DNA of 64,000 nucleotides from Styela clava (taxonomy: Eukaryota): the NCBI RefSeq assembly GCF_964204865.1, contig NC_135258.1, forward strand, positions 7,936,001 through 8,000,000. Direction: 5' to 3'. This document shows positions 11,301-63,378 of the stretch, one piece after another. The notes below the pieces were generated by a model. The model was not told the origin of the DNA and did no database searches. It saw nothing but the letters and a program-made list of their open reading frames with translations. Within the stretch, counting starts at the first letter, position 1, and each line of letters starts with the position of its first letter. Position numbers and translations under genes: made by a program.

Positions 11301-11435
11301 CACGCTAACTTGAATGGTTTATACACAGGCACATCGACCGAGGGTTTATCCTGGTTTAAGTGGAAAAATACATACACTCCATTTGCCAAATTTGTGGAAA
11401 TTAAGATCAGGAAATCAGCCGTGCCAGATCTTTAA
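8341..11435 (+). CDS. Ficolin-like protein, copy 1 (signal peptide, short collagen, neck, fibrinogen C-terminal domain), 311 aa, 6 exons
   Basis: Exons 8341-8617, 8980-9119, 9445-9541, 9975-10071, 10628-10695 and 11179-11435 are all GT-AG bounded and join into a 936-nt open frame. Collagen: [24 protein letters not shown]. FReD motifs: [83 protein letters not shown]. Confidence 0.93.
9147..9305 (-). mobile_element. 5' head of a tRNA-derived SINE in intron 2
   Basis: The minus strand carries an A-box-like GCATTGGTCTAA and a B-box-like GGTTCGCAGGTTTGAATCC. Homologues occur in intron 2 of all copies (~17120, ~34502, ~46880, ~52553-52745, ~63061). Confidence 0.6.
10223..10421. mobile_element. Degenerate Tc1/mariner-type MITE in intron 4
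   Basis: TA|CAGAGTGTATTTAAAGTC ... GACTTCATGGTCGCCCCG|TA. Present, variably degraded, in copies 1-4 and absent in copy 5 (~53470). Confidence 0.55.
10759..11035. mobile_element. hAT MITE in intron 5
   Basis: CAGTGGTTACGAACC ... GGTTTGCAAACCACTG with TSD TTATATAG/GTATATAG. Paralogous copies at 18717-18992 and 36083-36358, truncated at ~48565, and an empty site in copy 5 (~53810). Confidence 0.78.
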
Positions 11436-19200: not shown

Positions 19201-19395
19201 CCAGGAAAAAATTGCGCTGAAGAGTACAAAGGGGGTTGGTGGTACAACTGGTGTCACCACGCTAACTTGAATGGTTTATACGCAGACATAACATCGACCA
19301 AGGGTTTATCCTGGTATAAGTGGAAAAACACATACACTCCATTTGCCAAATTTGTGGAGATTAAGATCAGGAAATCAGCTGTGCCAAATCTTTAA
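16289..19395 (+). CDS. Ficolin-like protein, copy 2, 312 aa, 6 exons
   Basis: Exons 16289-16565, 16954-17093, 17421-17517, 17966-18062, 18586-18653, 19136-19395. Sizes and phases match copy 1, with exon 6 one codon longer, and the frame is open. Confidence 0.93.
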
Positions 19396-21695
19396 TAGTA
19401 TATAAGTAAAATAGTTTATAACATCTACGTACAGAGTGGTCATAAAGTCGCACATCAAGGTAAATCTCAAAGATACAAAAACCTTGAAATTATTCGATCC
19501 TGAGACACAGTCTTCTCTGATTCATCATGATAATAATCCAAAATTAGAATGAGTCGCCTATTGACGTACACGTTATGACGTAGATTGTGAGTTTAACTCT
19601 GGTGTGCGACATTATAGCTATCCCTGTATTGTAGCCTACAGTCAAATAAATACTTTCTCATTAGTCCATTGAAATTTCAAGTTTTGCCTGATACATGTTT
19701 TTATGTGTGTCAAGATTATCATGTTTGCATTTTCATTGTCATCTTATGAAAGTTGCATTGTTTTGTGTCTTCTCACCTAAAATATATCACATTCCATCAT
19801 ACAATTCTTTTTTTGTCATAATGGAGGACGAATAGATGAGATTCACATTAATGTTGATCATATAGGCGTTGTCAGGTGGTGGGGGTGAAAAGAGGGGTAT
19901 TTGCAGTGCGACATAAATTCTTACGCCTCCTCCAACACCATTTTGCTCTAGTTTTGAACGGTTTATTGAAAACCGGAGGATTCCTGACTTGCTGTCAATT
20001 ATCTTTTCTCCAAATGTACCAACCGATATGGAAGAAAATGCACGCTTATATAATTTGGATAACTCCGTCAGCAAAGTAAGGCTGTTGAAAGATTCTTCAA
20101 GATATTGCTAGATATCAGTGGCTGCCTTTACCTAGGCGTTTTCGAAGCAAAACGCACGAGTAAGCGTCGTATTACCTCATTGTACAAAAAATGCCCACCT
20201 CACCAATTTTGGGTTGGCTATGGTCTTGAATGCGCCATGTCTATTCTGTAACATAGTACTGTCTCTCTGATTGCGACCAACCAAGTGAATAAAAGTAAAA
20301 AGTTTTCATTTACCGCTGAATAGCAATATTTTTTTGACTAAAAGAATCCTACTAAGGTATGCAATCTTGGTTGTGGGATTTCAGTGATTTTAGTATTAAC
20401 CTAGTTCAGCGATGACGGAGGTTTAAGAACTGCATTCTATGAGAATGTTTTTATGGGGCTAAACGCATACCGAAGTGGCACTGATTAAGATCCCCTTAGG
20501 CAGATGCGACGGTACTGCCGTAGTGTGTGTACCCCTGCCTACAGGCTTCCGTCCCTTCACACAAGTTGATGTAAAGTAGGCGAACAAAATTAGCTACCTC
20601 CGTATTGATACACATTTTTCTTGTGCGCCGGTGCAATCGCATACCAAAGTGGCACTCTCAACAGTATATTTACGGCTTTCATAGACTGAATCGTTTTTCG
20701 TACATGTGCCTAAATTTATATATTCAAGTAAATGATTATTGTCAGTTATAATAAATACATAATTAAATAAATGTTGCTTTATACAATAAATTGTTGTAAA
20801 CAGATAAATCATAACCCTGTAAAATATACAACATTTTTTGTTTTGTTTATCTTTCACGTCATTCTAAATTGAACGGATTTGTACTATCGTTATTGTAATG
20901 AAAAACGTAAATTATGTGTATATCATCATCAACATTGTATTGAATGAACTGGAACATGACTGAAATTAAAGCTATAAGCACCAGTTCTCCTGCTGCAATT
21001 TTATTGTTGTTTTAGACTTTTTTTTTGTTTGATTTCAGTGGACCCAATATTATTGTTACTATTACGTATGGAGCTTGCTATCAATTTTTGAACAAAATCT
21101 AGGAATCAAAAACATGCCTCTAGGAGAAAAAATAAAACTTTATGAATCATTAAAAACGCTCCCAGAATCTAATGATAAACTTAGGACGTCCTTAAAAGAA
21201 GAAAACATTCGAACTCCGCAAAGGGAAGTCGAAGAAAAGCAAAGCTGAACCATCATAGCCCACGGTATACAGACCAATACCACCATCGGAGCAATACCAC
21301 CGGAGATTCCCAAATTGACATCAAGATGCGTTTGATACATTGTGATCCCCAAGGACCAATAGACATTTACCGGTATTTAGAATTTACTCTTGAAACTATA
21401 GGCAAGAAAATACCACGTCAGTAATATGTATATGAGGACAAATGTTTCGTATCCAGCTTGTAATCCCAACGTAGTTAAATTGACGTGCGAAATGTAATTT
21501 GAAAATAAATTAAAGTTTTAATTAAATCGTGCGGTATACAAGTCTTAATAAGATTGCAAGAATAATCGAAAGGCTGCACCGGTCAAAGGCCTCATTTGAT
21601 TATTTATATTTATGCTGTACTTCAACAAGTAATAAAATCCTATGTTAGATACATACGAGACATGGTGTGCTGATTTATTATTCCCCAGAGATAGA

Positions 21696-22265
21696 CATAT
21701 CTTGGTGGTCTTGAAATCCTGAATTTCTCAATAATAAAATTTTTAGCTGGACTTAGGACTGTAGAAGTTAAGAACAGAATGGGCCTAAGTCCAGCTAAAA
21801 TTTTTAATATTATGAAATTCAGAATTTCACGACCACCACCTTGTAGAGCATGGCTCAAAACCCCTAAATACTGAAAAAACGATAGTCCCAAGTTCCAATA
21901 TGATGGGCGTGAACATCAGAAATGAAATGTCCGAAACTTACATCCCTAAAAATTTCTTCAGTGCAACTTAGGCCTAAGTCACCTTGTTTTACCTTGCATC
22001 CAATACAAAAAAAAAATCAGAAGTTGTTGAGAACAGAATGGGCCAAAGTCCATTTTGGGTTAAAAAAGCAGGAAGGAATTGAAGCTGAAGTGCCAAAAAA
22101 TATTGATTACAAAGATATTCACATCCACATTAAAATAACCAGAGCTCAGGTTTCACTAAGTGTGAATATCTAGAAATTCAAAAATAAAAAGATTCCAAAT
22201 TGTTTTTTGCGTTTTTCTCAAAACTCAAAATTGTGACATAGGCCTGTTCTGTTCTCATCCGGCGA
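21696..22265. mobile_element. Unclassified transposon-like insert replacing the core promoter and exons 1-5 of a copy-5-type gene
   Basis: Homology to copy-5 upstream DNA stops at ~21695 and resumes in intron 5 at ~22266. The insert contains repeats of AGAACAGAA(T/C)(G/A)GGCC in both orientations and a 54-bp-arm hairpin. Confidence 0.55.
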
Positions 22266-22374
22266 TATACTTGCTTCATCGATCTCTTATAATGATATAA
22301 TTCAATAAAGCAACATGTATCGCACTGCACTTATTCTTGGGTGATTGTATTTATCATGTTGTTTCTATTAACAG

Positions 22375-22625
22375 GCGATTCAATGGCGTTCCATAACAAT
22401 AACCAATTTTCAATGATGGATCAGGAAAATGACATCGACCAAAGAAAAAATTGGGCTGAAGCTTACAAAGAGGGGTGGTGGTACAACAGGTGTCATCACG
22501 CTAACTTGAATGGTTTATAGGCAGATACGACATCGACCAAGGGTTTATCCTGGTTGAAGTGGAAAGATACATACACTCCATTTGCCAAATTTGTAGAAAT
22601 GAATATCAGGAAACGCAGAGACTAA
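22375..22625 (+). pseudogene. Orphan exon 6 of a copy-5-type ficolin-like gene
   Basis: An acceptor (ttaacag) is followed by [49 protein letters not shown] conserved Cys is Trp at 22452-22454 and there is a TAG at 22518-22520. The 3' end encodes IRKRRD like copy 5. Confidence 0.88.
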
Positions 22626-25442
22626 GCAGCGTGGCAAATTTGGAATAGTATAGATTACTATAGTTCATACCATCAATTGACACCAACAGGGTGTCAATAA
22701 AGTTGCGCACCAAGGAAAGATCAAAATTCTAAATCTACAAAAAGCCTGGAACTTGGTAAACAGTCTTCTCCGATTCATCATGATAACATAATAAAATTCG
22801 GCATACATCAACGTCATTATGAATTATGAGTTTTACCTTGATTCGCGACTTCATAGCCGCCCTGTACTGTACAATCAAAGAATTTCTTGCTTTATTCAGT
22901 TGTCAATTTGTGCTTAGACGTTTTTATGGGTGTCAAGAGTATTATGTTCGCAGACTAATAGTACTAACGAAAGAAATTTGTATACATTTTCATTGTCAAT
23001 ATATTATGATTGCTTTGTTTTGAGTTTTTTCACCTAAAATATATTAACTTTCATCACATAATTCGACTTTTTATTATGGACCAATAGATGAGATTCATCA
23101 AAGTTCCACGCCTGTTCTGTTGATTAAGACTGAAGCATATTCTCTCATGGTAACGAACGAAGTAAATGAAAGTAAACCGTTTTCATTTGCCGTTGAATGG
23201 AGCGCAATCTTTTTATGACTGAAGATATCAATGGAAAGGGTTGGAACTCGGGCATTCCCAAATTTAAGTTACGTATATAGGGTGCTACTTTATTATGCGA
23301 TCTCTGTTGTTGTGTGATCTCAGTGAATTTAGTTATGGTTAGGAATCCCTGTTCGAGAATGTCTTTATGAGATTAATTGCACACCAAAGTCGCGCCACAA
23401 TTGTTGACACTTTGTTTAAGCATTAAGATCTGATGCCAAAATAGCTCCCTCAACAGTATATTTATTGCTAACATTAAGTCAAAGTGAATCGCTTTTTGGT
23501 GAAGACAGTCATATGTTGATTTTAGCTTGCTTACAGTTGGGTTTATAGTCTGGAGGTTATTATAAAAAAACTTGGGGCATTTAAATGAACGCAGCTACGA
23601 AAAGGTACACAAAACTAATGAAATATTTTAGATTAGTTAACTGCTGTATTACTCTGAATAGGTTGTAGTCTACATACCGAGGAAATTTCTAAATATGGTT
23701 GATTGAGATAGCATGTGCCTGACTACTGCCCTTTTCTCGTTGCCTTTGTGTTGCTAGTGCATCCTTGTTCACGGAGTGCAAGAATACCAGAGCAAGAATC
23801 AAAACGGCCACATTGGGCGGTTTAATGTTCTTGCCTCACATTCAAGCAAATTTTATTGTACACCTGACATAGTCTAGGAATAACATATGCAAAAATGTTT
23901 GTTCCACGCAAACTAGAAGTACTTGCGACGTTTAGTGAACATGAGCCAAGTAAGCTAATATGACTTTAATGAGGTTAATTGACAAGTTCCGTAAGACTTT
24001 TTGCCTCAATATCAAATATCGCAAGTAGAAAATCGTGCTATAACGTCTGAATATTTTGAGGAACTTATTTTATTTTCAAGTTGATGTCGTTGAAACCTTT
24101 AGTTGGCAACGATTTTTGTTCTCATAATTATTAAATATATATTTTTCTCGCAATATTTAAAACTTCACAAACCTCCACTAATCTAATCGCTTCATTATAA
24201 TGAGGCACCTACAATAATGTGTATGGCACATAACAATATTCGTTGTGCTGTGTTACATATCAGCTTATACTATTAAAAATGAATACTGTGAACACCCATT
24301 AAACCAGCCTCTGATAATAATAATATATTTAACGGAAAAGATGACTTTAACAGATTAGTTTACCGGAAGCGAATCGTACATTGCTATATATCGGAACAAT
24401 GTCAGGGGAGAGGAAATATGGCTTTCAAACTCTTTCATATTTCGCCATATGCTAGGTGAAAGCCAAACTATTCGAGCAAAGATGCTCAAACAATGGCTGG
24501 TCGTATCAAATGCTTTTGCCCCATGCACTCCATAGATCATAACATTATTAAAACATTGTTCAAGATTGTCTTACAATAACTAGATCGTATAATCAGTATT
24601 GAGAAGGTCTAGAGCAGTTCTCCTCAAACGGATGTATATACAACCGGGTCGGGTTCCAAATAGCGACTGTTAGAACAGCGACAGTCATAATGGCGACTCC
24701 ATAACAGCGACGTAATCAAGTGAACGCATTAAAACAGCGACTGTTATGATAGCGTTATGGTTAGAGTTAGTCCAAAAAAGGTTGTTTTAAAGTCCCCTTT
24801 GGTTTCAATCTTTCACTACGCAGTATTTGCCTGTTTGTGCGTGCATACGTGTGTAGAGAAAGCCCCTAACCCTAACACGAGTTAAGTCGCTATAATACCA
24901 GTCGCTGCAATATGACAGTCGCTATCCGGCCTGGATACCATACAACCATGGGTACCAACGATTTAAAGGGTATATCACATCGATAGAGTGTCCAAGGGTG
25001 TACCACATAAAAAAAGATTTGGTACACTAACTTATGGACCTTTCCCCGAGCATCGACTTCCTTGTTTACTCCGTGACATTGGCCAATCAGCAAAATGCAA
25101 AAAGTGACGAAAAAGTCCTTTTTCGCATCCGATCAGACATAGGCCGCGAGCCGAGGCCATTTATCTTTCAGTTTCGTAGCGCACATCAGGTAACTACCTG
25201 AAAATGATTTTAAAATGTTCCTTAGAAATTTAGTAACAAATATTGCCTTGTTCCCACTTCCAAAAGTTGCACGTTTTACAGAAAAGACGCTTTTACTACA
25301 ATAAATATGTGTTACCATCTGTCCTATTTTCTCTGCTTTTCCGGTATCATGGGCCAATGAACGCAGACTTCTGCAAGACGTAACAGTCAAGTTAGTCAGC
25401 TGTAGGTGGATCCCCAGTGGTCGGATGAATATCAGATGTACT

Positions 25443-33702: not shown

Positions 33703-36700
33703 ATGATGTGGACGCTTAATACTAAGTCATTTTTCTTGATGACTCTAATCATTCTCCAATACTTCGCTTGTGAGTCTCAAGCAAGTATTAGTTTCGGAAC
33801 TTGTCATCTTTTGTGTAATGAGGAAGAAGCTTGTATGGAAGGGCCTCCTGGACCACCTGGAGAGCGCGGCCCAGAAGGACCTCGCGGAATGATGGGACCA
33901 GCAGGGCCACCTAGTACTTGCTGCGAAGATCTAGTTGAACAATACGAACAGCTTGAACATCAAGTTCAAGAGTTGAATGGTAAGTTATCAAATGTTGCGA
34001 TGCATTGGGAAACTTTACTTTTTCTGTGTTAGTCTTTCGTTTAATATTAGTTTGGCAAGTTCATTATTTCAACGAAAAATTACAAGTTGCTAACTTGCAT
34101 TTGTACTTGTTGCTTGTACATTCGGGCAATTGTTATTTGGGTTGGAAAAAGTGAATTAGTTATAATTTTTTGGGCAATTCGATACGATACAAAGAGCAAT
34201 ACTTTGACTTGGGAAATTTATCTATACTCGTAACATGGCTCGATACCATGTAAAAATAATTTTCCAAACAATTCTTAGTTTTTTACATTATTAAAACAGG
34301 CATGGAACATAATATAAGTGACATTACTTTCTCTAGAATGGATGTTTGCACGGGACTGTGCAGCGGTAAAAAGTCACGTGATATCAAGTGGAACTTACGT
34401 GATTCATCCGTTCAAGGAAATGAAACAAGGAGTCCAAGTGTATTGTGATCAAGTAACCGATGGTGGTGGATGGATTGTGAGTAGAGTTTTGAAAACTCTC
34501 ATGTACCCTTGTATCACCATACGGCGGTGAGGAGTTGGGCAATCCTTATGCCTATAATCATCCGCAAGATTCAAACCTGCGAACCCACGGGGTGTAATCA
34601 GAGGTGTCATGGAAAGCGTCGTTCTAACACTAAGCCTTAGATTTTAGACCAACCGCGCGAAAATAATACCCATATAATATTATATTATTGCATATTCTCG
34701 TTTTATGACACAGAGGAAGATTACAAACTTCTGAGTAGAATAGTTGTCCCAAAAATATGACGATCGCAACTAATTTTTAATTAACCTGTCACTTTCATTT
34801 TTAGGTAATACAAAGAAGACTTGACGGATCTGAAAATTTTTACCGTGACTGGAATGACTATGTCACCGGTTTTGGTTACATAGAACGAGAATTCTGGCTA
34901 GGTATACTTAATATTATGAACATAATTTGCGTTGGTTATTAAAAATATGATAAAATTTACATAATGTCATATTGATGATGGCGTACAGAGTGAAGTAGAT
35001 TCCCTTAATGTTCAATTAATTCAATATTATCAGTTACAAAACTGGCACTCTACTTCTGGTCCACCCAAAATACCATCAAAATATACCAGATTCTAAACAA
35101 TTTTATTTCTCAAATTATGACCTCGGCTTATGACTCGGGAATGCAGCGACTTGATTCGACACCGTTCTCGATCGTTAAAAACTTCCGTTGTTCAAGGTTG
35201 GACTTCGGAAACGTGGGCTAACCAATAGCTAACTGGCTAGTCTAACTCTATCTTTGACGTAAAATATTGACTAGAATTGACTCATAGTTGGAAAAAACAT
35301 GATTCAAGGTTTCAGAAACGTTTGCTATTGATATCTTTATAATTCACAGGACTAGAGACGATGCATAAAATATCTACCAATGGTCTTCATGAGATTCGAT
35401 TCGACTTTATCACAAGAGACAACGAAAAATTATTCGCAAAATATGGGTAATGCAAGTTTTTTTTACGCACTGTTAAATATTTTGTAAACTCTTTTTAGTG
35501 TTTGATAAAATGAAAGAGCGTAAAAAAGCTTACAAAACGGTCGATTATTCAGTGAACTACCATTTCAAGTTTGCTAATATTATTACGTGTGAATATACAG
35601 GGGGTACTTCAATTCCCTTTAAAATTCTCAATATTTTCAAATCAGGTTTGTTGTATTCTAATCAGTAATTGTTTGAGAATTTTAACGTTAAAAAATACAT
35701 CTGCGAGGCCCAAAACAATATATGGTATCGATAAATTACCTTTGCAATTTTGAAGAATGGTATTCATGGTAAACCTGTATATTTAGATTCTAGAATGCTA
35801 CATAAATCTAACACAAGTAATTTGTTGAAGCATTTTCGTTTGTTGATCGTCATCGTTCCGTGCAAATTTGTTTCAAGTAGACTCATTCTAAAATAACCTG
35901 ATTTATCATATATATATAAGTAAATATACAAAAAAATACTCTAATTTTCAGACAATTTCAAATTGCTGGAGCAGAAGACAATTATCGAATAACTATTACT
36001 GGATATTCGGGAAATGCAGGTATGCTCAAAATAAATTTTAAATTTAACAATAAACAATAACGCTGTTTTTCGATTTATACAGCAGCGGTTACCAACCGAA
36101 AAAAACCCAATGGGGTTAGCAGTTAGAGTGCGCCAGAGTGCTAGACGCTAAGCTGATACTACTTTTGTCTCGACACGAAAGCTCCCCATTCTACTTAGTT
36201 TCATTGTTTGATAAGGTTATTTCTGAGGGTGTTTTCACTTTGTTGAGCATGAATTGTTTAACATAATTGGATTTGAAATCATAAACAGAATGGTCATGAG
36301 AGCTGAAAGCCTCCGAAGGAGGAACGACTCACGAGCCATAAATGGTTGAAAACCTCTGTCATATAGTATGTGTATGTGCAGCAACATGATCTCAATTGCC
36401 TAATCTTCATCTCTCATAAAGATAGGATTTTATCGAGCAACATGTATCGCCCTGCACTTATACCTTGGTCATTGAATTTATCGTGTTGTTTTTATTAACA
36501 GGCGATTCGATGGAGTACCATAACAATAACCAATTTTCGACGATGGATCAGGAAAACGACCTCGACCCAGGAAAAAAATTGTGCCGAAGAGTACAAAGGG
36601 GGTTGGTGGTACAACTGGTGTCACCACGCTAACTTGAATGGTTTATACGCAGACATAACATCGACCAAGGGTTTATCCTGGTATAAGTGGAAAAACACAT

Positions 36701-39677: not shown

Positions 39678-39763
39678 GACTGGAGACGATGCATAGAATA
39701 TCCACCAATGGTCCTCATGAGATTCGACACAAGAGACAACGAAAAATTATTTGCAAAATATGG
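39678..39763 (+). pseudogene. Orphan exon 4 of a ficolin-like gene with an 11-bp deletion
   Basis: ttcacag|GACTGGAGACGATGCATAGAATATCCACCAATGGTCCTCATGAG... is 86 bp versus 97 bp in intact copies, and is flanked by intron-3-like and intron-4-like sequence. Confidence 0.82.
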
Positions 39764-46075: not shown

Positions 46076-49055
46076 ATGATGTGGACGCTTAATACTATGT
46101 CATTTTTCTTGGTGACTTTAATCATTCTCCAATACTTCGCTAGTGAGTCTCAAGCAAGTATTAGTCTCGGAACCTGTCATCTTTTGTGTAATGAGGAAGA
46201 AGCTTGTATGGAAGGGCCTCCTGGACCACCTGGAGAGCGCGGCCCAGAAGGACCTCGCGGAATGATGGGACCAGCAGGGCCACCCAGTACTTGCTGCGAA
46301 GATCTAGTTGAACGATACGAACAGCTTGATCATCATGTTCAAGAGTTGGATGGTAAGTTATCAAATGTTGCGATGCATTGGGAAACTGTACTTTTTCTGT
46401 TTTAGTCTCCCGTTTAATATTAGTTTGGCAAGTTCATTATTTCAACGAAAAATTGCAAGTTGCTAACTTGCATTATATTTGTACTTGTTGCTTGTACATT
46501 CGGGCAATTGTTATTTGGGTTGGAAAAAGCGAAATAGTTATAATTTTTTGGGCAATTCGATACGATACAAAGAACAATACTTTGACTTGGGAAATTTATC
46601 TATATTCGTAACATGGCTCGATACCATGTAAAAATAATTTTCCAAACAATTCTTAGTTTTTTAAATTATTAAAACAGGCATGGAACACATTATAAGTGAC
46701 ATTACTTTCTCTAGAATGGATGTTTGCACGGGACTGTGCAGCGGTAAAAACTCACGTGATATCAAGTGGAACTTACGTGATTCATCCGTTCAATGAAAGT
46801 AAACAAGGAGTCCAAGTGTATTGTGATCAAGAAACCGATGGTGGTGGATGGATTGTGAGTAGAGTTTTGATATCCCTCGTGTACCCTTGTAACACCATAC
46901 GGCGGTAAGGAGTTGGGCAATCCTTATGCCTATAATCACCCACAGGATTCAAACCTGCGAACCCACGCAGTGTAATCAGAGGTGCGATGGAAAGCGTTGT
47001 CCTAACACGTCGCCTCAGATTTTAGACCAATGCGTCGCGCAAAAATATTAACCATAATATATCATTGCATATGCTCGTTTTATGACACAAAAAGAAAGAA
47101 TACAGACATCTGAGTCGAACAATTGTCCCTAAAATTTGACGATCCCAACTCATTTTGAATTTACCTGTCACATTCATTTTTAGGTAATACAAAGAAGACT
47201 TGACGGAACTGAAGATTTTTATCGTGACTGGAATGACTATGTCACCGGTTTCGGGTACATAGGACGAGAATTCTGGCTAGGTATACTTTAAATTATAAAC
47301 ATAATTTTGCGTTGGTTATTTGAAATATAATACAATTTATATAATTTCATACTGATGATGGCGTCGATGATGACAAGGCAATGTGTTTTGTCTCAAATTT
47401 TCTATTTATAAGGATTCGGTATTCCGACTATCATATATATACAGGGTGGATCTGAAGTATATTAAAATTAATGTTAGATTATTTTCACAAAACTGTCACT
47501 CTACACCTGGTCCACCCAAAATACCATCAAAATATACCAGATTCTAAACAATTTTATTCCTTCAAATTATGACCTCGGCTTGTGACTCGGGTATGCAGTA
47601 ACTTGATTCGATACCGTTCTCGATCGTTAAAAACGTTCGTTGTTCAAGGTTTAAGTTCAGAAACGCGGGCTAACCATTAGCTAACTGGCTCGTTTAACTG
47701 TGTCTATGACGTAAAATATTGACTAGAATTGACTCAATGTTGGAAAACACATGATTCAAGGTTTTAGAAACGTTGGCCTAACACTATTGATATCTTCATA
47801 ATTCACAGGATTGGAAACGATGCATAGAATATCTACCAATGGTCCTCATGAGATTCGATTCGATTTTATCACAAGAGACAACGAAAAATTATTTGCAAAA
47901 TACGGGTAATGGAAGTTGTTTTTACGCACTGCCAAGTATTTTGTATACCTTATTTAGTTTTTGGTAAACTGAAAGAGCGTAAAAAGACTTACAAAACGGT
48001 CAAACAAAAATTCAGTGAACTAACATTTTAAGTTTGCTTATAGTATTGCGTGTGAATATACAGAGTGTATTTAAAGTCCCTTCACAGTATAAATTTTATG
48101 AAGTCAGTTTCCAATATATTTACACCAGGTTTGTTGTAATTTAATCAGTAATTGTTTGAGTATATTTACTTCATTTAATACATCTGTGAGGGCCAGAACA
48201 ATATATCAATAAATTCCCTTTGCAATTTTGGAAAAATTCCAAGACTTCATGATCGCCCCGTATATTTAGATTCTAGGCGGCTACATAAAAGTAACAAAAG
48301 TAATTGTTTGTTTGAAGCATTTGATTTTTTAAAGATTTCTCCACATTTTCGTTTGATGATCGTCATCGTTTCTGGCAAATTTGTTTCAAGTAGACTCATC
48401 CTAAAATAACCTAAAATATCATATAATTTTTAGACAATTTCAAATTGCTGGAGCAGAGGACAATTATCGAATAACGATTACCGGATATTCAGGAAATGCA
48501 GGTATACTCAAAATAATTTTTATAATCTACAATTGACAATAACGCTGTTTTTCGATTTATATAGCAATGGTTACCAACCGGAGGTCCCAATGGGGCATAG
48601 CAGTAAGAGGGCGCCACAGTGCTAGGCGTGAAACTGATCTTACTTATGCCTTGGCAAGTAAGCTTCCATCAAGCTAAGCATGATTTTAATTGCCTAATCT
48701 TCATCTCTCATCATAAATATAGGATTTGATCAAGTAACATGTATCGCACTACACTTATTCTTGAGTCATTTAATTTATCACGTTGTTTCTATTAACAGGC
48801 GATTCAATGGCGCACCATAACAATAACCAATTTACGACGAAGGATCAAGAAAACGACCAGGACCCAGGAAAAAATTGCGCTGAATCGTACATAGGGGGTT
48901 GGTGGTACAACTATTGTCACCACGCTAACTTGAATGGTTTATACACAGGTACATCGACCGAGGGTTTATCGTGGTTTAAGTGGAAAAATACGTACACTCC
49001 ATTTGCAAAATTTGTGGAAATTAAGATCAGGAAATCAGCCGTGCCAGATCTTTAA
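46076..49055 (+). CDS. Ficolin-like protein, copy 4, 311 aa, 6 exons
   Basis: Exons 46076-46352, 46715-46854, 47184-47280, 47809-47905, 48434-48501, 48799-49055. The frame is open, and the exon-6 protein equals copy 1 except FST->FTT. Confidence 0.93.
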
Positions 49056-50678: not shown

Positions 50679-53600
50679 ATGAGGACGGGCAAAACTAATT
50701 CATTTTTCTTGGTGGCATTAATTTTTCTCCAATACTTTGCTTGTGAGTCTCAAGCAAGTATTAGTCTCGGAACCTGTCAGCTTTCATGTGATGAGAACGA
50801 AAACCATCTCCCTTCTCGCGTAAGAGGTTCACCTGGACCACCGGGAAAGCGCGGTCCAGTAGGAAATCGCGGATTAGTTGGACCGAAAGGGTCACCAAGT
50901 AGTTGCTGTGAAGATCTAGTTGAACGAAACGAACAGCTTGAACGTCAAGTTCAGGAGTTAAATGGTAAGTAAACAAAATGTTACAATGCAAGCATTGGAA
51001 AGCCTCGTGTCTGCATTTACTTGATATGGTTTCTTACTGACTATTAGAGTTTGGTATAGCGCATTGGTATTTGGTATAGCGCTTCTACGGTGACTGTACT
51101 CAGTCTGCGGTGTGCTGCTATGCTGTTGCCCATGGTTACCTCACTGGTACTTGCCGGTGAATCTTTTTAATCACATATATTTGTTCGACTTCTTTCTATT
51201 TCAACCTTTATCAGAGTTAGACTTTTATCGTGTGTGTGGCTGCTTGATAATCAACGTTTTTTTTCGAGTCACCTCCCACAGTGAAATATATTTTTTATGT
51301 TTTTCTCTTTTTGTTTGCATCAAGTGTATTGTCATTTTGGTGAAAAATAAACTACTGACTGATTACCTATGTCGTGAATATCACGTGAAGATAATTTTCC
51401 GACCCTCCTTAGTTTTTTAAATTATTGAAACAGGAATGGAACTATATTGACATTACTTTTTCCAGAACGGACGTTTTCACGGGACTGTGCAGTCGTAAAA
51501 AGTCACGTGATATCAAGTGGAACTTACGTGATTCATCCGTTCAATGAGAGTAAACAAGGAGTCCAAGTGTATTGTGATCAAGAAACCGATGGAGGCGGTT
51601 GGATTGTGAGTGGTATCTTCGGAAACCTTTTTGTCTATGTTTTACAATTTGTAGATCAGCAGCATGAGGCCCAAACAGAATTAATCATCAGAAACAATTC
51701 TCATCTATATTAAATATCTCAATTTCATGTAACTTGGTTTAGAAAATAAAACTATAGAATATCAGAGGCAATTGTGGCATTTATTCTATATGTAATTTTA
51801 TTTACTTTGTATCTCAATACACTTATTTAATATGATTGCGTGCAGAGGAGTTACAAACATTTTAAGTCATTATCTCATTGCACGTAATAGAATTCATCTC
51901 TTTTTAATGAGAAAGGCAGAACAACAATACATGGGCCTTTAGTCTACAACAGTGTGGTCCAAACTCAGGCCCGCGGACCACATGTGACCCGCCACTTCAT
52001 TATCTCGGGCTCGCGTCACATTCGGAGAGTAATCAAATCGCATTTCGTGTTGTTTCGTAATAAAATTAATCAGAAAAATCTTTTGACATATTGTCATCAC
52101 TAATGTTACTGAATTAAATAGTGTTATGGCTAGCTGAGGCAACTAGCGAAGCTGAATGATGTGCTTGGCAGTCTAAATTGTTATCTGGCTTTCTAAATTT
52201 TTGGTCGAGAATATATGCTAACAATATAGGCATCATCGAAAACTAGGAATCGAATGTGCATTCTATTAGCCCATAGAATTGCCATGCCTGATAACTATGT
52301 GTTTGCACAATAAAACTGTTTGTTCTGTATTGCACTGTTCATCTATTTTTGGCACTATCGTGGCCCGCGAACAATGCAAAAATAATGTTGTGGCCCGCGG
52401 AGCTGACAACTTTGGACCACCCTGGTCTAGAACAAAACTGAACCTGCCGTTCATGATGTTAAATTGCCGTTGTTCATGAACAGATCCAGAATTCTGAAGA
52501 TTTTGAAACATAATTCGTCTGCGATCATTTTAAAACTATAGTCATAAAGCGTACCATGGCCTCTCGTCCCGTTACCAGTTATTTTGTTTCAAGTGCATTA
52601 ACTTTAGGTAGGCAGAACCGACCAGCCATTACGTGTACCACTCTACGGCGATAAGGAGTTCAGTAATTCTCTGGCACATAATTATCCGCCGCGGAATTCC
52701 AACCTGCGAACCCATGAAGGGTAATGAGAGGAGCGATGGAAAACGTCGACGATTGCAAATCAACGATCATTTTTTTTTGTCCCGTTCATTTTTAGGTAAT
52801 ACAAAGAAGACTTGACGGAACTGAAGATTTTTATCGTGACTGGAATGACTATGTCACAGGTTTCGGTTACAAAGAACGAGAATTCTGGCTAGGTATACAA
52901 ACAATATACGAAAAATTTGAATTTATAGATATAAGACGTAATTAGTGATTTGTTCAAAACATAAGGGCATTTTCAACTTTTTTCTGCGCATGGTAGCGTC
53001 CATGATAACATAATCTTTTTTGTGTTGTCTCGAAGGTTATGGTGATAAGGATTAGATAATCCTACCAGCATATTATGTAATAGGTTAGCATTAACATATA
53101 CCAGATGCTAAACAATTTCCGTTCTCTAAATATCCGCACGTCACAGCGACCGAATTTTTAAATTCAAAATTAGATTGACTTGAAAAAGAATGGTATTTAC
53201 TACACACTTGTTACAAATTGATATCTTTATTATTCACAGGACTGGAGACGATGCATAGCATATCCACCAATGGTGCTCATGAGATTCGATTCGATTTCAC
53301 CACAATGGACAACGAAAAATTATTCGCAAAATACCGGTAATGGAAGTTTTTTTTTTAACGCGCAGTCAATTATTTTTAATGCTCCATTTATTATTGGATG
53401 GAATATAAAAAGTATAAAAAGGCTCGATTATTTAGTAAACCATATTTTAAATTTGCTAATAACATTGCATATAAATATATATTTCAATTTCAGGCTGCAA
53501 TGTAAATGTCACAGAATGTCACAAAAGGAATTCGTTGTAGCATTTGATATTTTAGTGATTTCTTCACAGTTTAGTTCATTGATCGTCATCGTTTTTTGCT

Positions 53601-54207
53601 TTAAGTAAACTCATCTTGAGCAATATTGAGGAAATAAAAATACTCTTTATATATTAAATTAACAAAAATGTTTTAATTTTCAGACAATTTCAAATTGCTG
53701 GAGCGGAAGACAGTTATCGAATAACTATTACCGGATATTCAGGAAATGCTGGTATGCATAAAATATTGATTATAATGAACAATAGACAATAAGACTGTTT
53801 TTCAATTTATATAGTATGTGTATGTTTAGAAACTTGAATTTGAATGTATATATACTTGCTTCTTCGATCTCTTATGATGATACAATTCAATAAAGCAACA
53901 TGTATCGCACTGCACTTATTCTTGGGTGACTGAATTTATCATGCTGTTTTCATTAACAGGCGATTCAATGGCGTTCCATAACAATAACCAATTTTCAACG
54001 ATGGATCAGAAAAACGACCTCGACCAAGGAAAAAATTGCGCTGAAGCTTACAAAGGGGGGTGGTGGTACAACAGGTGTCATCACGCTAACTTGAATGGTT
54101 TATACGCAGACACATCGACCAAGGGTTTATCCTGGTTGAAGTGGAAAGATTCATACACTCCATTTGCCAAATTTGTAGAAATGAAGATCAGGAAACGCAG
54201 AGACTAA
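50679..54207 (+). CDS. Ficolin-like protein, copy 5 (divergent subtype with PGKRGP collagen motif), 311 aa, 6 exons
   Basis: Exons 50679-50964, 51466-51605, 52796-52892, 53240-53336, 53684-53751, 53960-54207 (936 nt). Collagen: GSPGPPGKRGPVGNRGLVGPKGSP. C-terminus: KIRKRRD. Confidence 0.93.
51950..52424. mobile_element. hAT MITE in intron 2 of copy 5
   Basis: CAGTGTGGTCCAAA ... TTTGGACCACCCTG with TSD GTCTACAA/GTCTAGAA and GGCCCGCG subterminal motifs. Duplicate at 56369-56843. Confidence 0.8.
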
Positions 54208-54562
54208 GCAGCGTGGCAAATTTGGAATAGTATAGATTACTATAGTTCATACCATCAATTGACACCAACAGGGTGTCAATAAAGTTGCGCACCAAGGAAA
54301 GATCAAAATTCTAAATCTACAAAAAGCCTGGAACTTGGTAAACAGTCTTCTCCGATTCATCATGATACCATATTAAAATTCGGCATACATCAACGTCATT
54401 ATGAATTATGAGTTTTACCTTGATTCGCGACTTTATAGCCGCCCTGTGCTGTACAATCATATAATTTCTTGCTTTATTCAGTTGTCAATTTGTGCTTAGA
54501 CGTTTTTATGGGTGTCAAGAGTATTATGTTCGCAGACTAATAGTACTAACGAAAGAAATTTG

Positions 54563-54672
54563 GGACCTCCCGAAGTATGCGCACCAAGATGGCGCACAAC
54601 CTGAACTCAGGTTGTGTACCAGGTTAGGATTCAGGTTATGCGACATCTTGGTGGACATACTTCAGGAGTACC
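54563..54672. mobile_element. 110-bp foldback MITE with 8-bp TSD
   Basis: TSD GAAATTTG (54555-54562, 54673-54680) and ~43-bp imperfect inverted arms. Empty site aagaaatttgtatac at ~22971; duplicate at 58982-59091. Confidence 0.82.
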
Positions 54673-55884
54673 GAAATTTGTATACATTTTCATTGTCAAT
54701 ATATTATGATTGCTTTGTTTTGAGTTTTTTCACCTAAAATATATTAACTTTCATCACATCACATCACATCGACTTTTTAATATGGACCAATAGATGAGAT
54801 TCATCAAAGTTCCACGCCTGTTCTGTTGATTAAGACTGAAGCATACTCTCTCATGGTAACGAACGAAGTAAATGAAAGTAAACCGTTTTCATTTGCCGTT
54901 GAATGGAGCGCAATCTTTTTATGACTGAAGATATCAATGGAAAGGGTTGGAACTCGGGTATTCCCAAATTTAAATTACGTATATATATATATATATATAT
55001 ATAGGGTGCTACTTCAATATGCGATCTCTGTTGTTGTGTGACCTCAGTGAATTTAGTTAGGGTTAGGAATCCCTGTTCGAGAATGTCCTCATGAGATTAA
55101 TTGCACACCAAAGTCGCGCCACAACTGTTGGCACTTTGTTTAAGCATGTGAGATCGGATGCAAAAATAGCATCCTCAATAGTATATTTATCGCTACCATT
55201 AAGTCAAAGTGAATCGCTTTTTGGTGAAGACAGTCATATGTTATTTTTAGCTTGCATACAGTTGGGTTAATAGTTTGGAGGTTAAAAACTTGGGGAATTT
55301 AAATGAACGCAGCTACGAAAAGGTAAACAAAATTATTGGAATATTTTAGATTAGTTAACTGCTGTATTAATCTGAATAGGTTGTAGTCTACATACCGAAG
55401 TAATTTCTAAATATGGTTGATTGAGAAACCATGTGCCTGACTTTTGCCCTTTTCTCATTGCCTCTGTGTTGTTACTGTTAGTGCATGCTTGTTCACTGAG
55501 TGCAAGAATACTAAGGCAAGAATCAAAACGGCCACATTGGGCGGTTTAATGTTCTTGCCTCACATTCAAGCAAATTTTATTGTATATACCATAACCTTAT
55601 TTATTACATTTTTTCATGACCAAATTGAGACATTATCATGCCCTCGGTTTTTTTAAGTATACTAGATAATCAACGTTTTTTTTCGAGTCACCTCCCACAG
55701 TGAAATATATTTTTTATGTTTTTCTCTTTTTGTTTGCATCAAGTGTATTGTCATTTTGGTGAAAAATAAACTACTGACTGATTACCTATGTCGTGAATAT
55801 CACGTGAAGATAATTTTCCGACCCTCCTTAGTTTTTTAAATTATTGAAACAGGAATGGAACTATATTGACATTACTTTTTCCAG

Positions 55885-58626
55885 AACGGACGTTTTCACG
55901 GGACTGTGCAGTCGTAAAAAGTCACGTGATATCAAGTGGAACTTACGTGATTCATCCGTTCAATGAGAGTAAACAAGGAGTCCAAGTGTATTGTGATCAA
56001 GAAACCGATGGAGGCGGTTGGATTGTGAGTGGTATCTTCGGAAACCTTTTTGTCTATGTTTTACAATTTGTAGATCAGCAGCATGAGGCCCAAACAGAAT
56101 TAATCATCAGAAACAATTCTCATCTATATTAAATATCTCAATTTCATGTAACTTGGTTTAGAAAATAAAACTATAGAATATCAGAGGCAATTGTGGCATT
56201 TATTCTATATGTAATTTTATTTACTTTGTATCTCAATACACTTATTTAATATGATTGCGTGCAGATGAGTTACAAACATTTTAAGTCATTATCTCATTGC
56301 ACGTAATAGAATTCATCTCTTTTTAATGAGAAAGGCAGAACAACAATACATGGGCCTTTAGTCTACAACAGTGTGGTCCAAACTCAGGCCCGCGGACCAC
56401 ATGTGACCCGCCACTTCATTATCTCGGGCTCGCGTCACATTCGGAGAGTAATCAAATCGCATTTCGTGTTGTTTCGTAATAAAATTAATCAGAAAAATCT
56501 TTTGACATATTGTCATCACTAATGTTACTGAATTAAATAGTGTTATGGCTAGCTGAGGCAACTAGCGAAGCTGAATGATGTGCTTGGCAGTCTAAATTGT
56601 TATCTGGCTTTCTAAATTTTTGGTCGAGAATATATGCTAACAATATAGGCATCATCGAAAACTAGGAATCGAATGTGCATTCTATTAGCCCATAGAATTG
56701 CCATGCCTGATAACTATGTGTTTGCACAATAAAACTGTTTGTTCTGTATTGCACTGTTCATCTATTTTTGGCACTATCGTGGCCCGCGAACAATGCAAAA
56801 ATAATGTTGTGGCCCGCGGAGCTGACAACTTTGGACCACCCTGGTCTAGAACAAAACTGAACCTGCCGTTCATGATGTTAAATTGCCGTTGTTCATGAAC
56901 AGATCCAGAATTCTGAAGATTTTGAAACATAATTCGTCTGCGATCATTTTAAAACTATAGTCATAAAGCGTACCATGGCCTCTCGTCCCGTTACCAGTTA
57001 TTTTGTTTCAAGTGCATTAACTTTAGGTAGGCAGAACCGACCAGCCATTACGTGTACCACTCTACGGCGATAAGGAGTTCAGTAATTCTCTGGCACATAA
57101 TTATCCGCCGCGGAATTCCAACCTGCGAACCCATGAAGGGTAATGAGAGGAGCGATGGAAAACGTCGACGATTGCAAATCAACGATCATTTTTTTTTGTC
57201 CCGTTCATTTTTAGGTAATACAAAGAAGACTTGACGGAACTGAAGATTTTTATCGTGACTGGAATGACTATGTCACAGGTTTCGGTTACAAAGAACGAGA
57301 ATTCTGGCTAGGTATACAAACAATATACGAAAAATTTGAATTTATAGATATAAGACGTAATTAGTGATTTGTTCAAAACATAAGGGCATTTTCAACTTTT
57401 TTCTGCGCATGGTAGCGTCCATGATAACATAATCTTTTTTGTGTTGTCTCGAAGGTTATGGTGATAAGGATTAGATAATCCTACCAGCATATTATGTAAT
57501 AGGTTAGCATTAACATATACCAGATGCTAAACAATTTCCGTTCTCTAAATATCCGCACGTCACAGCGACCGAATTTTTAAATTCAAAATTAGATTGACTT
57601 GAAAAAGAATGGTATTTACTACACACTTGTTACAAATTGATATCTTTATTATTCACAGGACTGGAGACGATGCATAGCATATCCACCAATGGTGCTCATG
57701 AGATTCGATTCGATTTCACCACAATGGACAACGAAAAATTATTCGCAAAATACCGGTAATGGAAGTTTTTTTTTTAACGCGCAGTCAATTATTTTTAATG
57801 CTCCATTTATTATTGGATGGAATATAAAAAGTATAAAAAGGCTCGATTATTTAGTAAACCATATTTTAAATTTGCTAATAACATTGCATATAAATATATA
57901 TTTCAATTTCAGGCTGCAATGTAAATGTCACAGAATGTCACAAAAGGAATTCGTTGTAGCATTTGATATTTTAGTGATTTCTTCACAGTTTAGTTCATTG
58001 ATCGTCATCGTTTTTTGCTTTAAGTAAACTCATCTTGAGCAATATTGAGGAAATAAAAATACTCTTTATATATTAAATTAACAAAAATGTTTTAATTTTC
58101 AGACAATTTCAAATTGCTGGAGCGGAAGACAGTTATCGAATAACTATTACCGGATATTCAGGAAATGCTGGTATGCATAAAATATTGATTATAATGAACA
58201 ATAGACAATAAGACTGTTTTTCAATTTATATAGTATGTGTATGTTTAGAAACTTGAATTTGAATGTATATATACTTGCTTCTTCGATCTCTTATGATGAT
58301 ACAATTCAATAAAGCAACATGTATCGCACTGCACTTATTCTTGGGTGACTGAATTTATCATGCTGTTTTCATTAACAGGCGATTCAATGGCGTTCCATAA
58401 CAATAACCAATTTTCAACGATGGATCAGAAAAACGACCTCGACCAAGGAAAAAATTGCGCTGAAGCTTACAAAGGGGGGTGGTGGTACAACAGGTGTCAT
58501 CACGCTAACTTGAATGGTTTATACGCAGACACATCGACCAAGGGTTTATCCTGGTTGAAGTGGAAAGATTCATACACTCCATTTGCCAAATTTGTAGAAA
58601 TGAAGATCAGGAAACGCAGAGACTAA
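55885..58626 (+). pseudogene. Headless duplicate of copy 5 (exons 2-6 only; no promoter or exon 1)
   Basis: Exons 55885-56024, 57215-57311, 57659-57755, 58103-58170 and 58379-58626 are copy-5 exons shifted by +4419. The duplication starts inside intron 1. Confidence 0.85.
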
Positions 58627-61600
58627 GCAGCGTGGCAAATTTGGAATAGTATAGATTACTATAGTTCATACCATCAATTGACACCAACAGGGTGTCAATA
58701 AAGTTGCGCACCAAGGAAAGATCAAAATTCTAAATCTACAAAAAGCCTGGAACTTGGTAAACAGTCTTCTCCGATTCATCATGATACCATATTAAAATTC
58801 GGCATACATCAACGTCATTATGAATTATGAGTTTTACCTTGATTCGCGACTTTATAGCCGCCCTGTGCTGTACAATCATATAATTTCTTGCTTTATTCAG
58901 TTGTCAATTTGTGCTTAGACGTTTTTATGGGTGTCAAGAGTATTATGTTCGCAGACTAATAGTACTAACGAAAGAAATTTGGGACCTCCCGAAGTATGCG
59001 CACCAAGATGGCGCACAACCTGAACTCAGGTTGTGTACCAGGTTAGGATTCAGGTTATGCGACATCTTGGTGGACATACTTCAGGAGTACCGAAATTTGT
59101 ATACATTTTCATTGTCAATATATTATGATTGCTTTGTTTTGAGTTTTTTCACCTAAAATATATTAACTTTCATCACATCACATCACATCGACTTTTTAAT
59201 ATGGACCAATAGATGAGATTCATCAAAGTTCCACGCCTGTTCTGTTGATTAAGACTGAAGCATACTCTCTCATGGTAACGAACGAAGTAAATGAAAGTAA
59301 ACCGTTTTCATTTGCCGTTGAATGGAGCGCAATCTTTTTATGACTGAAGATATCAATGGAAAGGGTTGGAACTCGGGTATTCCCAAATTTAAATTACGTA
59401 TATATATATATATATATATATAGGGTGCTACTTCAATATGCGATCTCTGTTGTTGTGTGACCTCAGTGAATTTAGTTAGGGTTAGGAATCCCTGTTCGAG
59501 AATGTCCTCATGAGATTAATTGCACACCAAAGTCGCGCCACAACTGTTGGCACTTTGTTTAAGCATGTGAGATCGGATGCAAAAATAGCATCCTCAATAG
59601 TATATTTATCGCTACCATTAAGTCAAAGTGAATCGCTTTTTGGTGAAGACAGTCATATGTTATTTTTAGCTTGCATACAGTTGGGTTAATAGTTTGGAGG
59701 TTAAAAACTTGGGGAATTTAAATGAACGCAGCTACGAAAAGGTAAACAAAATTATTGGAATATTTTAGATTAGTTAACTGCTGTATTAATCTGAATAGGT
59801 TGTAGTCTACATACCGAAGTAATTTCTAAATATGGTTGATTGAGAAACCATGTGCCTGACTTTTGCCCTTTTCTCATTGCCTCTGTGTTGTTACTGTTAG
59901 TGCATGCTTGTTCACTGAGTGCAAGAATACTAAGGCAAGAATCAAAACGGCCACATTGGGCGGTTTAATGTTCTTGCCTCACATTCAAGCAAATTTTATT
60001 GTATATACCATAACCTTATTTATTACATTTTTTCATGACCAAATTGAGACATTATCATGCCCTCGGTTTTTTTAAGTATACTCGTAGAGAAAACCCACTC
60101 TCTTGGATTTATTTGGAAAAATGACGCTAATCGTGTTGAGACTACAGTTGGAGGATGGTTCGGAGATACCCCGTCAAACCGCTCTCAAGGATTTGATTTT
60201 AACGTCATAGTTCCAAACACGGTCCATAGACATTAACCTTAGATAATTATTTTGGTCAAGTAAGCAGGGCTAGCTCCCTGAAAACCGTCAAGTACTTCTT
60301 GTTGGCGTGGCAGTACTGCTTTAGCATATGTTATTTCTAACCCCAACGTCATCCTAAAATGATGTCACTACAAAGTCAAAGTGACGAAATAAGGTCCGTC
60401 AAAGTATACTGACTGTCGTCTAAAACGCACAGACAATCACCCGGAATCAAGCAAGCTATTTCCCTCGTTTCTTGTCGTAATGATCCCGATATGAGAGAGA
60501 TCGCTGTCGTTAGCGAGTTCGCTATCGGCGGCGGAGATGCCATATTGGGCGATCATAGCTTTTCTTTGGAAAGCTCTCTTGCGTGATTGTGACGTCCTAG
60601 TGACTTAATTTTTGTTAGATGATGTAGTCAGGTGTGGGCTAGGAATAACATATGCAAAAATATTTGTGCCACGCCAACTAGAAGTACTTACGGCGTTTAG
60701 TGAACATGAGCCAAGTACGCTAATATGACTTTAATGAGGTTAATTGACAAGTTCCGTAAGACTTTTTGCCTCAATATCAAATATCGCAGGTAGAAAATCG
60801 TGCTATAACGTCTGAATATTTTATATTTTATGAACTTATGTTATTTTCAACTTTCCAGTTTTTAAGTTGATGTTGTTGAAAATAATAGTTGGCAAAGATT
60901 TTCGTTCTCATAATTATTAAATCTTTATTTTTCTCGCGATATTTTAAACCTCACAAACCTCCACTAATCTAATCGCTGCATAATAATGAGGCACCTACAA
61001 TAATGTGTACGGCACATAACAATTTTCGTTGTGCTATATTACATATCATCTTATACTATTAAAAATGAATACTGTGAACACCCATTAAACCAGCCTCTGA
61101 TAATAATAATATTCATAGAATAAAGCAGCACGGTTACCGTGGTGAGATTTTGTAGACGAAATATAATCCTGTAGAGTGTAAACTATATGACAACGCTTCC
61201 GCAAAAATATCTATACCTGATATCTGATATACTGAGAATTCATTTATTCTTTTGAACTGTATTTTAATGTAAATAAATCATTATCTCTTGCGTCCGCTTT
61301 AGCGTGACATCATAATGTACAGATTATTTCTGCATCTGACGGTAGTTAAAATATATATAAAATATATATATAGTAACTGAACACAATTAGTTCAACGAAA
61401 GAGATGCCTTAACGGATTAGTTTAACGGAAGCGAATCGTATATTGCTATATACTTCACAATGTCAGGTAAAAGGAAATATGACTTCAAACTCTTTCATAT
61501 TTCACCATATTCTAGGTAAAAGCAAAACTATTCGAGCGAAGATGCTCAAACAAAGGCTGGTTGTATTGAATGCCATTGCGCCTGCATTCCATAGATAATG

Positions 61601-62959
61601 ACATTATTAAAATCTTGTACAAGATTCTCTTACAACAACTAGATCGTATATAACCAGCATTAAGATGATCTAGAGCAGTTCTTCCCAAACGAGTGTATAT
61701 ACAACCCAGGAAAGGTTATATCACATCGATAGAATGCACGGGGGTGTAACACATAAAATAGATTCGGTACACTAACTTATTTTATTGCAATGTGTCACAA
61801 ATAAAGCATAACGTGTATGAGCATTAAAATTCGCACCTTGCTACATTTATATTGCTTCGTCCCAGCGTTATACAGATGTGGGTTGTATGATTGTCATAAT
61901 AGAACTTGGTTAGTTAAACCCATCTTACGCTAAAAATGAACTGTCATAAGCAAACATTTTCACACAAAATGTGATCACGGCAGATTGTACGTCGCTATTG
62001 AGTTCACAACATCGATCATGATGAAAAACTTTAAATTAGCATCATTGGCAATGGACGTTGTACTGGTATTTTTAATAAATTTGTACTTCCCAGATGCGTA
62101 TTATAGCTAAAAGTTACTTCATATAAATTACTTCCATAGTAGATACAGTGAATACAACAATACTCAACATGCATGAGATTTCTTCGATTGGCAGTACGAT
62201 CAAATAGAGATCAATAAGTATTGTCACACATGACCTGATGCTTGAAGCTATTGACAAGGCTGAAATAGGAGCATAAATACCCTGTTCCATATTTGGAAAA
62301 ATGGGAGATGCAAATGCTACGCATACCTGCAGCGGCAACACGATTTGATTTAATATACTCGATTCTAAATCAATTCTAAAATCGGTCTGTAGAAAAGGGT
62401 TATAGACAGGGGGTTGTCAAATTGTTCTGCTGCCCAGGTCGAATTTCTGATATTGATTCCCTTAAATCTAACTTTTATTTGTACAGGATAAACATATAAT
62501 AGATGTTGTTATGCATGAGAATGAATAAATTAAACGTCAATTAAGAATGAAATGTTTGTATTATTCAAAACAGAAACATCAGCACCAGCAAGTTTTAAAT
62601 AAATCGGGCAATATATAGGTCTTAATGAGATTGCAAGTATAACCGCAATACTGTATACCTTAAAAAGACCATATTTGATATATATCGCTATGCTGCACTT
62701 TTTAACACGGTACAAGATCATATGCTGAATACATGTGATGCATACGGTGAATAGCCTGCTTACTTTATATGACCTAAAGATAGGTTTTCGCGTGTATGTG
62801 TATATTTGCGACCTATCAATTTCCTTCTTCTACCATTACAGCCGTGACATAACTGCCTACTAAAACTCATTTAACCGCAGAGGCATCAACAGAGGGCGTT
62901 GTATGTAAAAGCAATTATTCTGGGCCGTTCGGTATTTTATTCCAGTGAATTTCATCAGA

Positions 62960-63378
62960 ATGAAATCCGTTCAAGAAAACAAACAAGGGGTTGAAGTGTA
63001 TTGTGATCAAAAAAACGATGGTGGTGGATGGATTGTGGGTAGAGTTTTGATAACCCTCATGTACCCTTGTATCACCATACGACGGTGAGGAGTTGAGCAA
63101 TTCTTATACATATAATCATCCTTCTACGGGATTCAAACATGCGAACCTACGCAGCGTAATCAGAGATGCAATGGAAAGCGTCGTTCTAACACTAAGCCTT
63201 AGACCAATGCGCCCCCAACCGCGCAAAAATAATGTTCATATAATATATATTGCATATGCTCGTTTTATGACATAGTAGGAAAGAATACATACATCTGAGT
63301 AGTATAGTTGTCCCTGAAATTTGACGATCGCAACTCATTTTTAATTTACCTGTCACATTCATTTTTAGGTAATACAAA
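62960..63378 (+). pseudogene. Deleted ficolin-like relic: 5'UTR fused to the 3' half of exon 2, plus the first codons of exon 3
   Basis: The promoter/5'UTR homologue runs straight into ATG 62960, encoding MKSVQENKQGVEVYCDQKNDGGGWI, with a donor at 63035. An intron-2 homologue follows, then ttttag|GTAATACAAA (63369-63378), after which homology stops. Confidence 0.82.

Follow-up and report, generated by a model that had tools for sequence, protein, structure and literature searches.

Two multi-copy ficolin subfamilies of Styela clava differ at a candidate MASP-docking lysine in the collagen stalk

The Styela clava window analysed here, a stretch of 64 kb, belongs to a tandem array of ficolin genes whose products fall into two types, about 80% identical to each other and carrying either Lys or Glu at one position of a short collagen stalk. 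Our preferred reading, to which we give a probability of about one half, is that the Lys subfamily docks the complement protease MASP through this residue while the Glu subfamily, derived yet intact, does not, both subfamilies being multi-copy. As Glu replaces a collagen Lys that is kept in nearly all ascidian ficolins examined, the Glu type would likely recognise microbes without recruiting the protease that starts complement.

Ascidian ficolins as such are already known (excerpt of PMC5465252). In the titles and abstract openings of the open literature we found neither a Lys motif in ascidian ficolins nor a Styela K/E split; older Halocynthia ficolin papers may mention the motif. Non-activating relatives of activating lectins are a familiar concept (SP-A, mouse ficolin-B), which makes the finding only moderately surprising, and the known invertebrate partners of MASP lack collagen. 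What the Styela pair offers is a natural control, two closely similar secreted proteins that differ at the key residue, so that the question can be put to the test by a single swap.

Gene models and domain organization

Every copy has six exons joined by GT-AG introns and encodes, in order, a signal peptide, a Cys-containing N-terminus, eight collagen triplets, a CC pair, a helical neck, and a fibrinogen domain. Copy 5, an intact Lys-type gene (50679..54207, plus strand; 311 aa; RefSeq XP_077972616.1, P0278), has exons at 50679-50964, 51466-51605, 52796-52892, 53240-53336, 53684-53751, and 53960-54207. Its collagen stalk spans 50826..50897, and the CC pair and heptad-like helical neck that follow span 50904..50964, with a predicted helix at residues 76-98. 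The other four copies, likewise on the plus strand, are of the Glu type: copy 1 (8344..11435; XP_039262855.2, P0013, a model that begins one Met upstream of ours), copy 2 (16292..19395; XP_077972085.1, P0014), copy 3 (33706..36632; XP_077972087.1, P0015), and copy 4 (46079..49055; XP_077972086.1, P0016), the last lying directly upstream of copy 5. All four are identical to these RefSeq models over the aligned columns, and copies 1, 2, and 4 are intact. In copy 3, an A-run of exon 6 (36570-36600) holds a frameshift, present in RefSeq as in our model, that truncates the fibrinogen domain and leaves 268 aa; the copy is either a genuine pseudogene or the product of an assembly error.

With copy 5 exon 1 as the query, four matches were obtained among 86 candidates, all of them from Styela clava. 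The GT..AG joints of copy 5 introns 1-3 were seen in contigs of two sequencing runs presumed to be RNA, X6 and X7 (intron 1 in one run, introns 2 and 3 in both), contigs that may stem from paralogs or alleles, and Lys-type exon 1 was covered by one presumed-RNA contig, again possibly of a paralog or allele. Coverage of exon 1 was absent from one presumed-RNA run (X7), and depths cannot rank expression. At position 50847, no alternative letter occurred among the contig rows listed.

The identification of these proteins as ficolins draws on domain and structure checks. A hydrophobic N-terminal helix (7-24) is present in the structure model. The stalk, with eight uninterrupted triplets, matches the Pfam Collagen profile with E-values of 1.5e-4 and 3.2e-5, under the curated cut-off because it is so short, and the fibrinogen-like domain covers the whole of PF00147 (E = 9e-64). 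Matches in the PDB were tenascin, FIBCD1, and ficolin-2. An AlphaFold2 single-chain model was confident about the neck helix and the fold of the fibrinogen domain, while the stalk, at a pLDDT of about 50 or below, was uninformative. A Cys-His pair and the Asp residues of the Ca loop, candidate parts of an acetylated-sugar binding site in the P domain, are present in the alignment. In that loop, copy 5 and a headless duplicate downstream of it have Lys at 54010-54012 (DQKND), a position held by Glu or Asp in all other stalk-bearing paralogs having the loop; the variant A54010G is present in other contigs. Judging from the loop sequence, this Lys may weaken Ca2+ binding, and because it is private to copy 5 and its duplicate, other genes may typify the Lys type better than copy 5 does.

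A Lys/Glu difference within a linked set of changes

The initial annotation had reported PGKRGP at 50841-50858 of copy 5, with codon AAG at 50847-50849, and GAG at the equivalent collagen position of copies 1-4, and the sequence confirms both observations. The residue occupies the X position of triplet 3 of eight Gly-X-Y triplets, which reads GKR in copy 5 and GER in copies 1-4 (GAG at 8500-8502 in copy 1 and at 33862-33864 in copy 3). A six-frame scan of the window for PG[KE]xGP recovered exactly five sites, one with K and four with E, and just five Gly-X-Y runs reach a length of at least five triplets, all being eight triplets long. The description of the copy 5 stalk as basic and of the others as more acidic or neutral was likewise borne out, with charges of +4/-0 (net +4) versus +2/-2 in copies 1-4.

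That only copy 5 has the Lys, as had also been proposed, is true of the intact genes of the window; it does not extend to the locus or the species, for which there are four other Lys-type RefSeq models, placed on the same contig by inference, nor to the window as a whole, which contains one decayed and one headless Lys-type copy in addition. Copy 5 and these four models, but not copies 1-4, have the Lys with Pro before it and Gly-Pro after it. The residue that follows the Lys (Xaa) is Arg in copy 5, outside the aliphatic, Met, and small polar classes. One Lys-type model (XP_039264199.2, P0004) has an intermediate stalk, in which a Lys site whose Xaa is Ser (PGKSGP) precedes the Glu-type sequence GPE-GPR.

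Across all 24 stalk-bearing records, the K/E state co-varies with a third N-terminal Cys (two Cys precede the stalk in the Lys type, three in the Glu type) and, in records with an intact tail, with a tail of the KSAVPD/NL type. It also co-varies with about ten other stalk changes, and on account of this linkage a separate role of K/E cannot be isolated. Between the types, the stalk shows 11 non-synonymous differences; among copies 1, 2, and 4, it shows none, with 0-2 synonymous differences, although the numbers of sites are small. Over their whole length these three copies have dN/dS values of 0.29-0.37, which indicates that Glu-type genes are maintained by purifying selection.

These values weigh on a neutral account of the two types, in which birth-and-death drift fixed one G-to-A type transition in a redundant duplicate and tandem duplication spread it, with no adaptive meaning. 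A single base change would suffice for this, and the array is turbulent, with one copy frameshifted, others deleted, and one duplicate headless, in a species with 54 reported ficolin genes (excerpt of PMC7540406). However, the Glu genes are under purifying selection, carry a fixed and linked set of changes, and recur in the older annotation (7 of 12 records, the remaining 5 being Lys-type, with some records being isoforms), and we regard drift as distinctly unlikely.

Ancestry and conservation of the lysine

Conservation was assessed in the best 120 of 1491 matches, a set with 23 named tunicate proteins besides four representatives of the cluster; 15 of the 23 possess a stalk at least four triplets long. 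Within these best 120 matches, G-K-x-G was found in 15/15 named tunicate stalks and G-K-x-G-P in 14/15, figures to be read in the light of a possible bias, the matches having been picked for their resemblance to a Lys-type query, and of the non-independence of homologous sites. Elsewhere in the same 15 stalks, Lys stands at the X position in just 1 of 142 other triplets. Once Halocynthia ficolin 2, with GKAGP, and one Clavelina protein, with GRRGP, are included, the counts outside the cluster become 16/17 for G-K-x-G and 15/17 for G-K-x-G-P, and Arg is the commonest residue at Xaa (8/17, including seven of the eight Ciona proteins). Vertebrate ficolin stalks have G-K-x-G in 15/18 and G-K-x-G-P in 11/18, and a small control set of other or unnamed proteins with collagen and fibrinogen domains has them in 2/7 and 1/7, respectively; these controls do not include seven proteins from squamates or five unnamed ones that carry GKA/GKS-GP. 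We rejected a chance origin of the motif, G-K-x-G-P occurring in 8 of 9 hand-picked clade representatives where 0.6-2.0 would be expected, a rough guide that assumes an independence broken by shared ancestry.

In a careful 48-row tree, the Glu-type proteins group as a single clade (support 95/94). Quick trees recover the same clade, both for the fibrinogen domain (SH-aLRT 99), an alignment that excludes the K/E site, and for the exon-1 part (94), with the Lys-bearing P0279 falling outside. On these sequence grounds, the Lys is ancestral, and a single K-to-E change most likely gave rise to the Glu type. The trees and the 16/17 tunicate stalks support the earlier interpretation to this extent: the Lys is the conserved, ancestral residue of a motif resembling the MASP site, and Glu is one derived change. 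The presence of a lone X-position Lys across Ciona, Clavelina, Halocynthia, and Styela further suggests that the mammalian docking site is ancient. In the Clavelina ficolin XP_076809607.1 (P0224), G-R-R-G-P replaces G-K-x-G-P, with Arg for Lys, possibly an independent loss of the Lys.

Comparison with other ascidian and vertebrate ficolins delimits how far the likeness goes. The ficolins of Halocynthia roretzi (AsFCN; ficolin 2 is BAB60705.1, P0197), likewise a stolidobranch, share the short collagen stalk, the helical segment, and the C-terminal fibrinogen domain, and ficolin 2 has G-K-A-G-P near the start of its stalk. It is about 40% identical to the Styela proteins, has five rather than eight triplets and Ala at Xaa, and lacks the CC pair after the collagen; in the one Halocynthia sequence examined, no Glu-type paralog was seen. 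The ficolin-like proteins of Ciona and Clavelina have Cys after the collagen and then a neck, as in Styela, whereas their stalks range from 7 to 19 triplets and the proteins form separate clades; the Ciona stalks read PGKRGP in 7/8 and PGKKGP in the other. Vertebrate stalks likewise combine a Cys-bearing N-terminus, collagen, and a recognition domain with a lone X-position Lys followed by Gly-Pro. From the Lys to the C-terminal end of the stalk there are five triplets in copy 5 and 3-5 in most vertebrate stalks. Unlike the vertebrate type, copy 5 has a stalk of 8 instead of 14-20 triplets, Arg at Xaa, only two triplets before the site, and an added helical neck.

A proposed division of labour in MASP recruitment

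In mammals, the chains of defence collagens trimerise through their collagen regions, and an unmodified X-position Lys inserts into a Ca2+-binding acidic site of the CUB domain; with Glu in its place there is no binding. By analogy, Lys-type oligomers of Styela would use the fibrinogen domain to recognise the surfaces of microbes and would deliver MASP there to cleave C3; Glu-type oligomers would attach to similar surfaces and cause agglutination or marking but leave complement untriggered. Such an arrangement would amount to a division of labour between two multi-copy subfamilies, as opposed to a single activator tuned by decoys.

Binding of MASP through the collagen Lys has been demonstrated in mammals only, with the Lys contacting the acidic Ca2+ site of CUB (excerpt of PMC4222235). 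SP-A, a non-activating relative that resembles the Styela Glu type in having Glu at the Lys position, does not bind MASP, and Glu63Lys together with Cys64Leu creates binding; in the same work the Lys alone was essential, Ser being tolerated at Xaa and Glu not, and an MBL site moved two triplets N-terminally was still tolerated (PMC2856262). In this respect, too, the earlier interpretation stands, Glu versus Lys being what separates non-binding SP-A from MASP-binding variants (PMC2856262), but its single-activator component does not. Mouse ficolin-B is a second non-activating relative, with Lys-Glu, and the same change abolished binding in rat ficolin-B. Compared with SP-A and ficolin-B, the Styela switch is recent, lies between tandem neighbours that are 80% identical, and is multi-copy on both sides. 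An expanded set of complement genes that includes C3 has been described in S. clava (excerpt of PMC7540406).

Several features speak against docking. The mammalian consensus has an aliphatic residue or Met at Xaa, and Arg is found there in 0/18 vertebrate stalks. The site lies in triplets 1-4 in tunicates, mostly in triplets 8-12 in vertebrates, and the tunicate site is near the N-terminal hub. Ascidian MASP might instead dock on the helical neck or the fibrinogen domain, so that both types would activate complement alike and the Lys would have another role, perhaps structural. Halocynthia GBL has a coiled coil in place of collagen and still associates with MASP (excerpt of PMC8605247), amphioxus FCN1 binds MASP1/3 without collagen, in a source that describes as unclear what urochordate ficolins do in complement (excerpt of PMC11312191), and the helical neck is common to all Styela copies with few differences between the types (dN 0.09-0.13). 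Docking elsewhere would leave without explanation an X-position Lys followed by Gly-Pro in 15/17 tunicate stalks of very different lengths and sequences, and we hold it to be rather unlikely.

The Lys could also engage another acidic partner, such as a CR1-like molecule, calreticulin, or an LRP1/CD91-like receptor, that links ficolin to phagocytes; the Glu type would then have lost this link and not MASP. MASP-3 competes with CR1 for MBL, ficolin-2, and C1q, which suggests a shared lysine, and a title cited in the same source names the same Lys for calreticulin (excerpt of PMC5845983); S. clava, moreover, has 16 CR1-like genes (excerpt of PMC7540406). Yet little changed when acidic residues proposed as candidates in CR1 were mutated, and a C1q Lys mutant kept partial binding (excerpt of PMC5845983), and this alternative seems to us improbable. 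The same competition makes an opsonin role of the Glu type by the usual route doubtful, MASP-3 and CR1 being suggested to share the lysine (excerpt of PMC5845983). We also considered GER as a gained integrin site and rejected it: the Ciona alpha1 I domain shows no metal-dependent recognition of GFOGER, and the alphaC helix is missing from tunicate I domains (PMC4237329).

A further and speculative alternative would have Glu chains act as decoys or co-assemble with Lys chains and thereby tune complement activation. The similarity of the two types, their joint duplication as head-to-tail doublets, and a Glu stalk invariant in amino acids among copies 1, 2, and 4 suit this scheme, whereas the existence of at least five Lys-type genes and the N-terminal Cys counts of three versus two, which may favour separate assembly, argue against it, and little likelihood is left to it. 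A bolder synthesis, which we rate as a long shot, would combine several of these elements. Docking between collagen Lys and CUB would predate the tunicate-vertebrate split and tolerate Arg in ascidians; one K-to-E change in a tandem doublet would independently have given S. clava a complement-silent subfamily that assembles together with its activating twins or outcompetes them; and the ratio of Lys to Glu copies on a haplotype would set complement tone.

Gene numbers and history of the array

The 14 RefSeq records that we infer to lie on the contig of 23,510,596 bases comprise five Lys-type (four PGKRGP, one PGKSGP), seven Glu-type, and two stalkless proteins, counts that are a lower bound from five protein clusters, with placement not by coordinates. 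The proposal of one activator and several non-activating paralogs is contradicted by these at least five Lys-type genes. Nor is the 4:1 ratio of Glu to Lys copies in the window a sign of a single activator, as it reflects local deletion of Lys partners. Units of the array are head-to-tail doublets of a Glu-type and a Lys-type gene, and the Lys partner has been deleted in two of them. After copy 1, a junction (11912..13009, plus strand) joins sequence that lies upstream of copy 5 (to 49791) to sequence that lies downstream of it (from 54806), the entire Lys-type gene of the doublet being missing. After copy 2, a decayed Lys-type remnant (21285..23860, plus strand) retains 95% identity to copy 5 in the upstream region and 96% in the exon 6 region, with exons 1-5 absent and a stop codon in exon 6.

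Downstream of copy 5, a tandem duplication of 4419 bp (51243-60080; 2 mismatches in 4421 aligned bases) has its second copy at 55662..60080 (plus strand), with copy 5 exons 2-6 and without exon 1. The headless protein encoded there matches a headless RefSeq model (XP_077972279.1, P0025). Contig depth in run X1, which is not equivalent to copy number, changes from about 6.7 just upstream of the duplication to about 14 within it, in line with a real duplication. Beyond it lies a Glu-type remnant (61711..63378, plus strand), in which the upstream region is fused to the middle of exon 2 and exon 1 is deleted.

Other elements are interspersed in the array. Two scattered fragments of ficolin exon 4, one internally deleted, follow copy 3 at 39335-39888. 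Between copies 2 and 3, an ORF of 1076 codons on the minus strand (26373-29600) with PHD finger, endonuclease, and reverse transcriptase domains is apparently an intact non-LTR retrotransposon. Intron 2 of copy 5 contains a high-copy element with inverted ends (51950-52450), very deep in four sequencing runs and likely a MITE.
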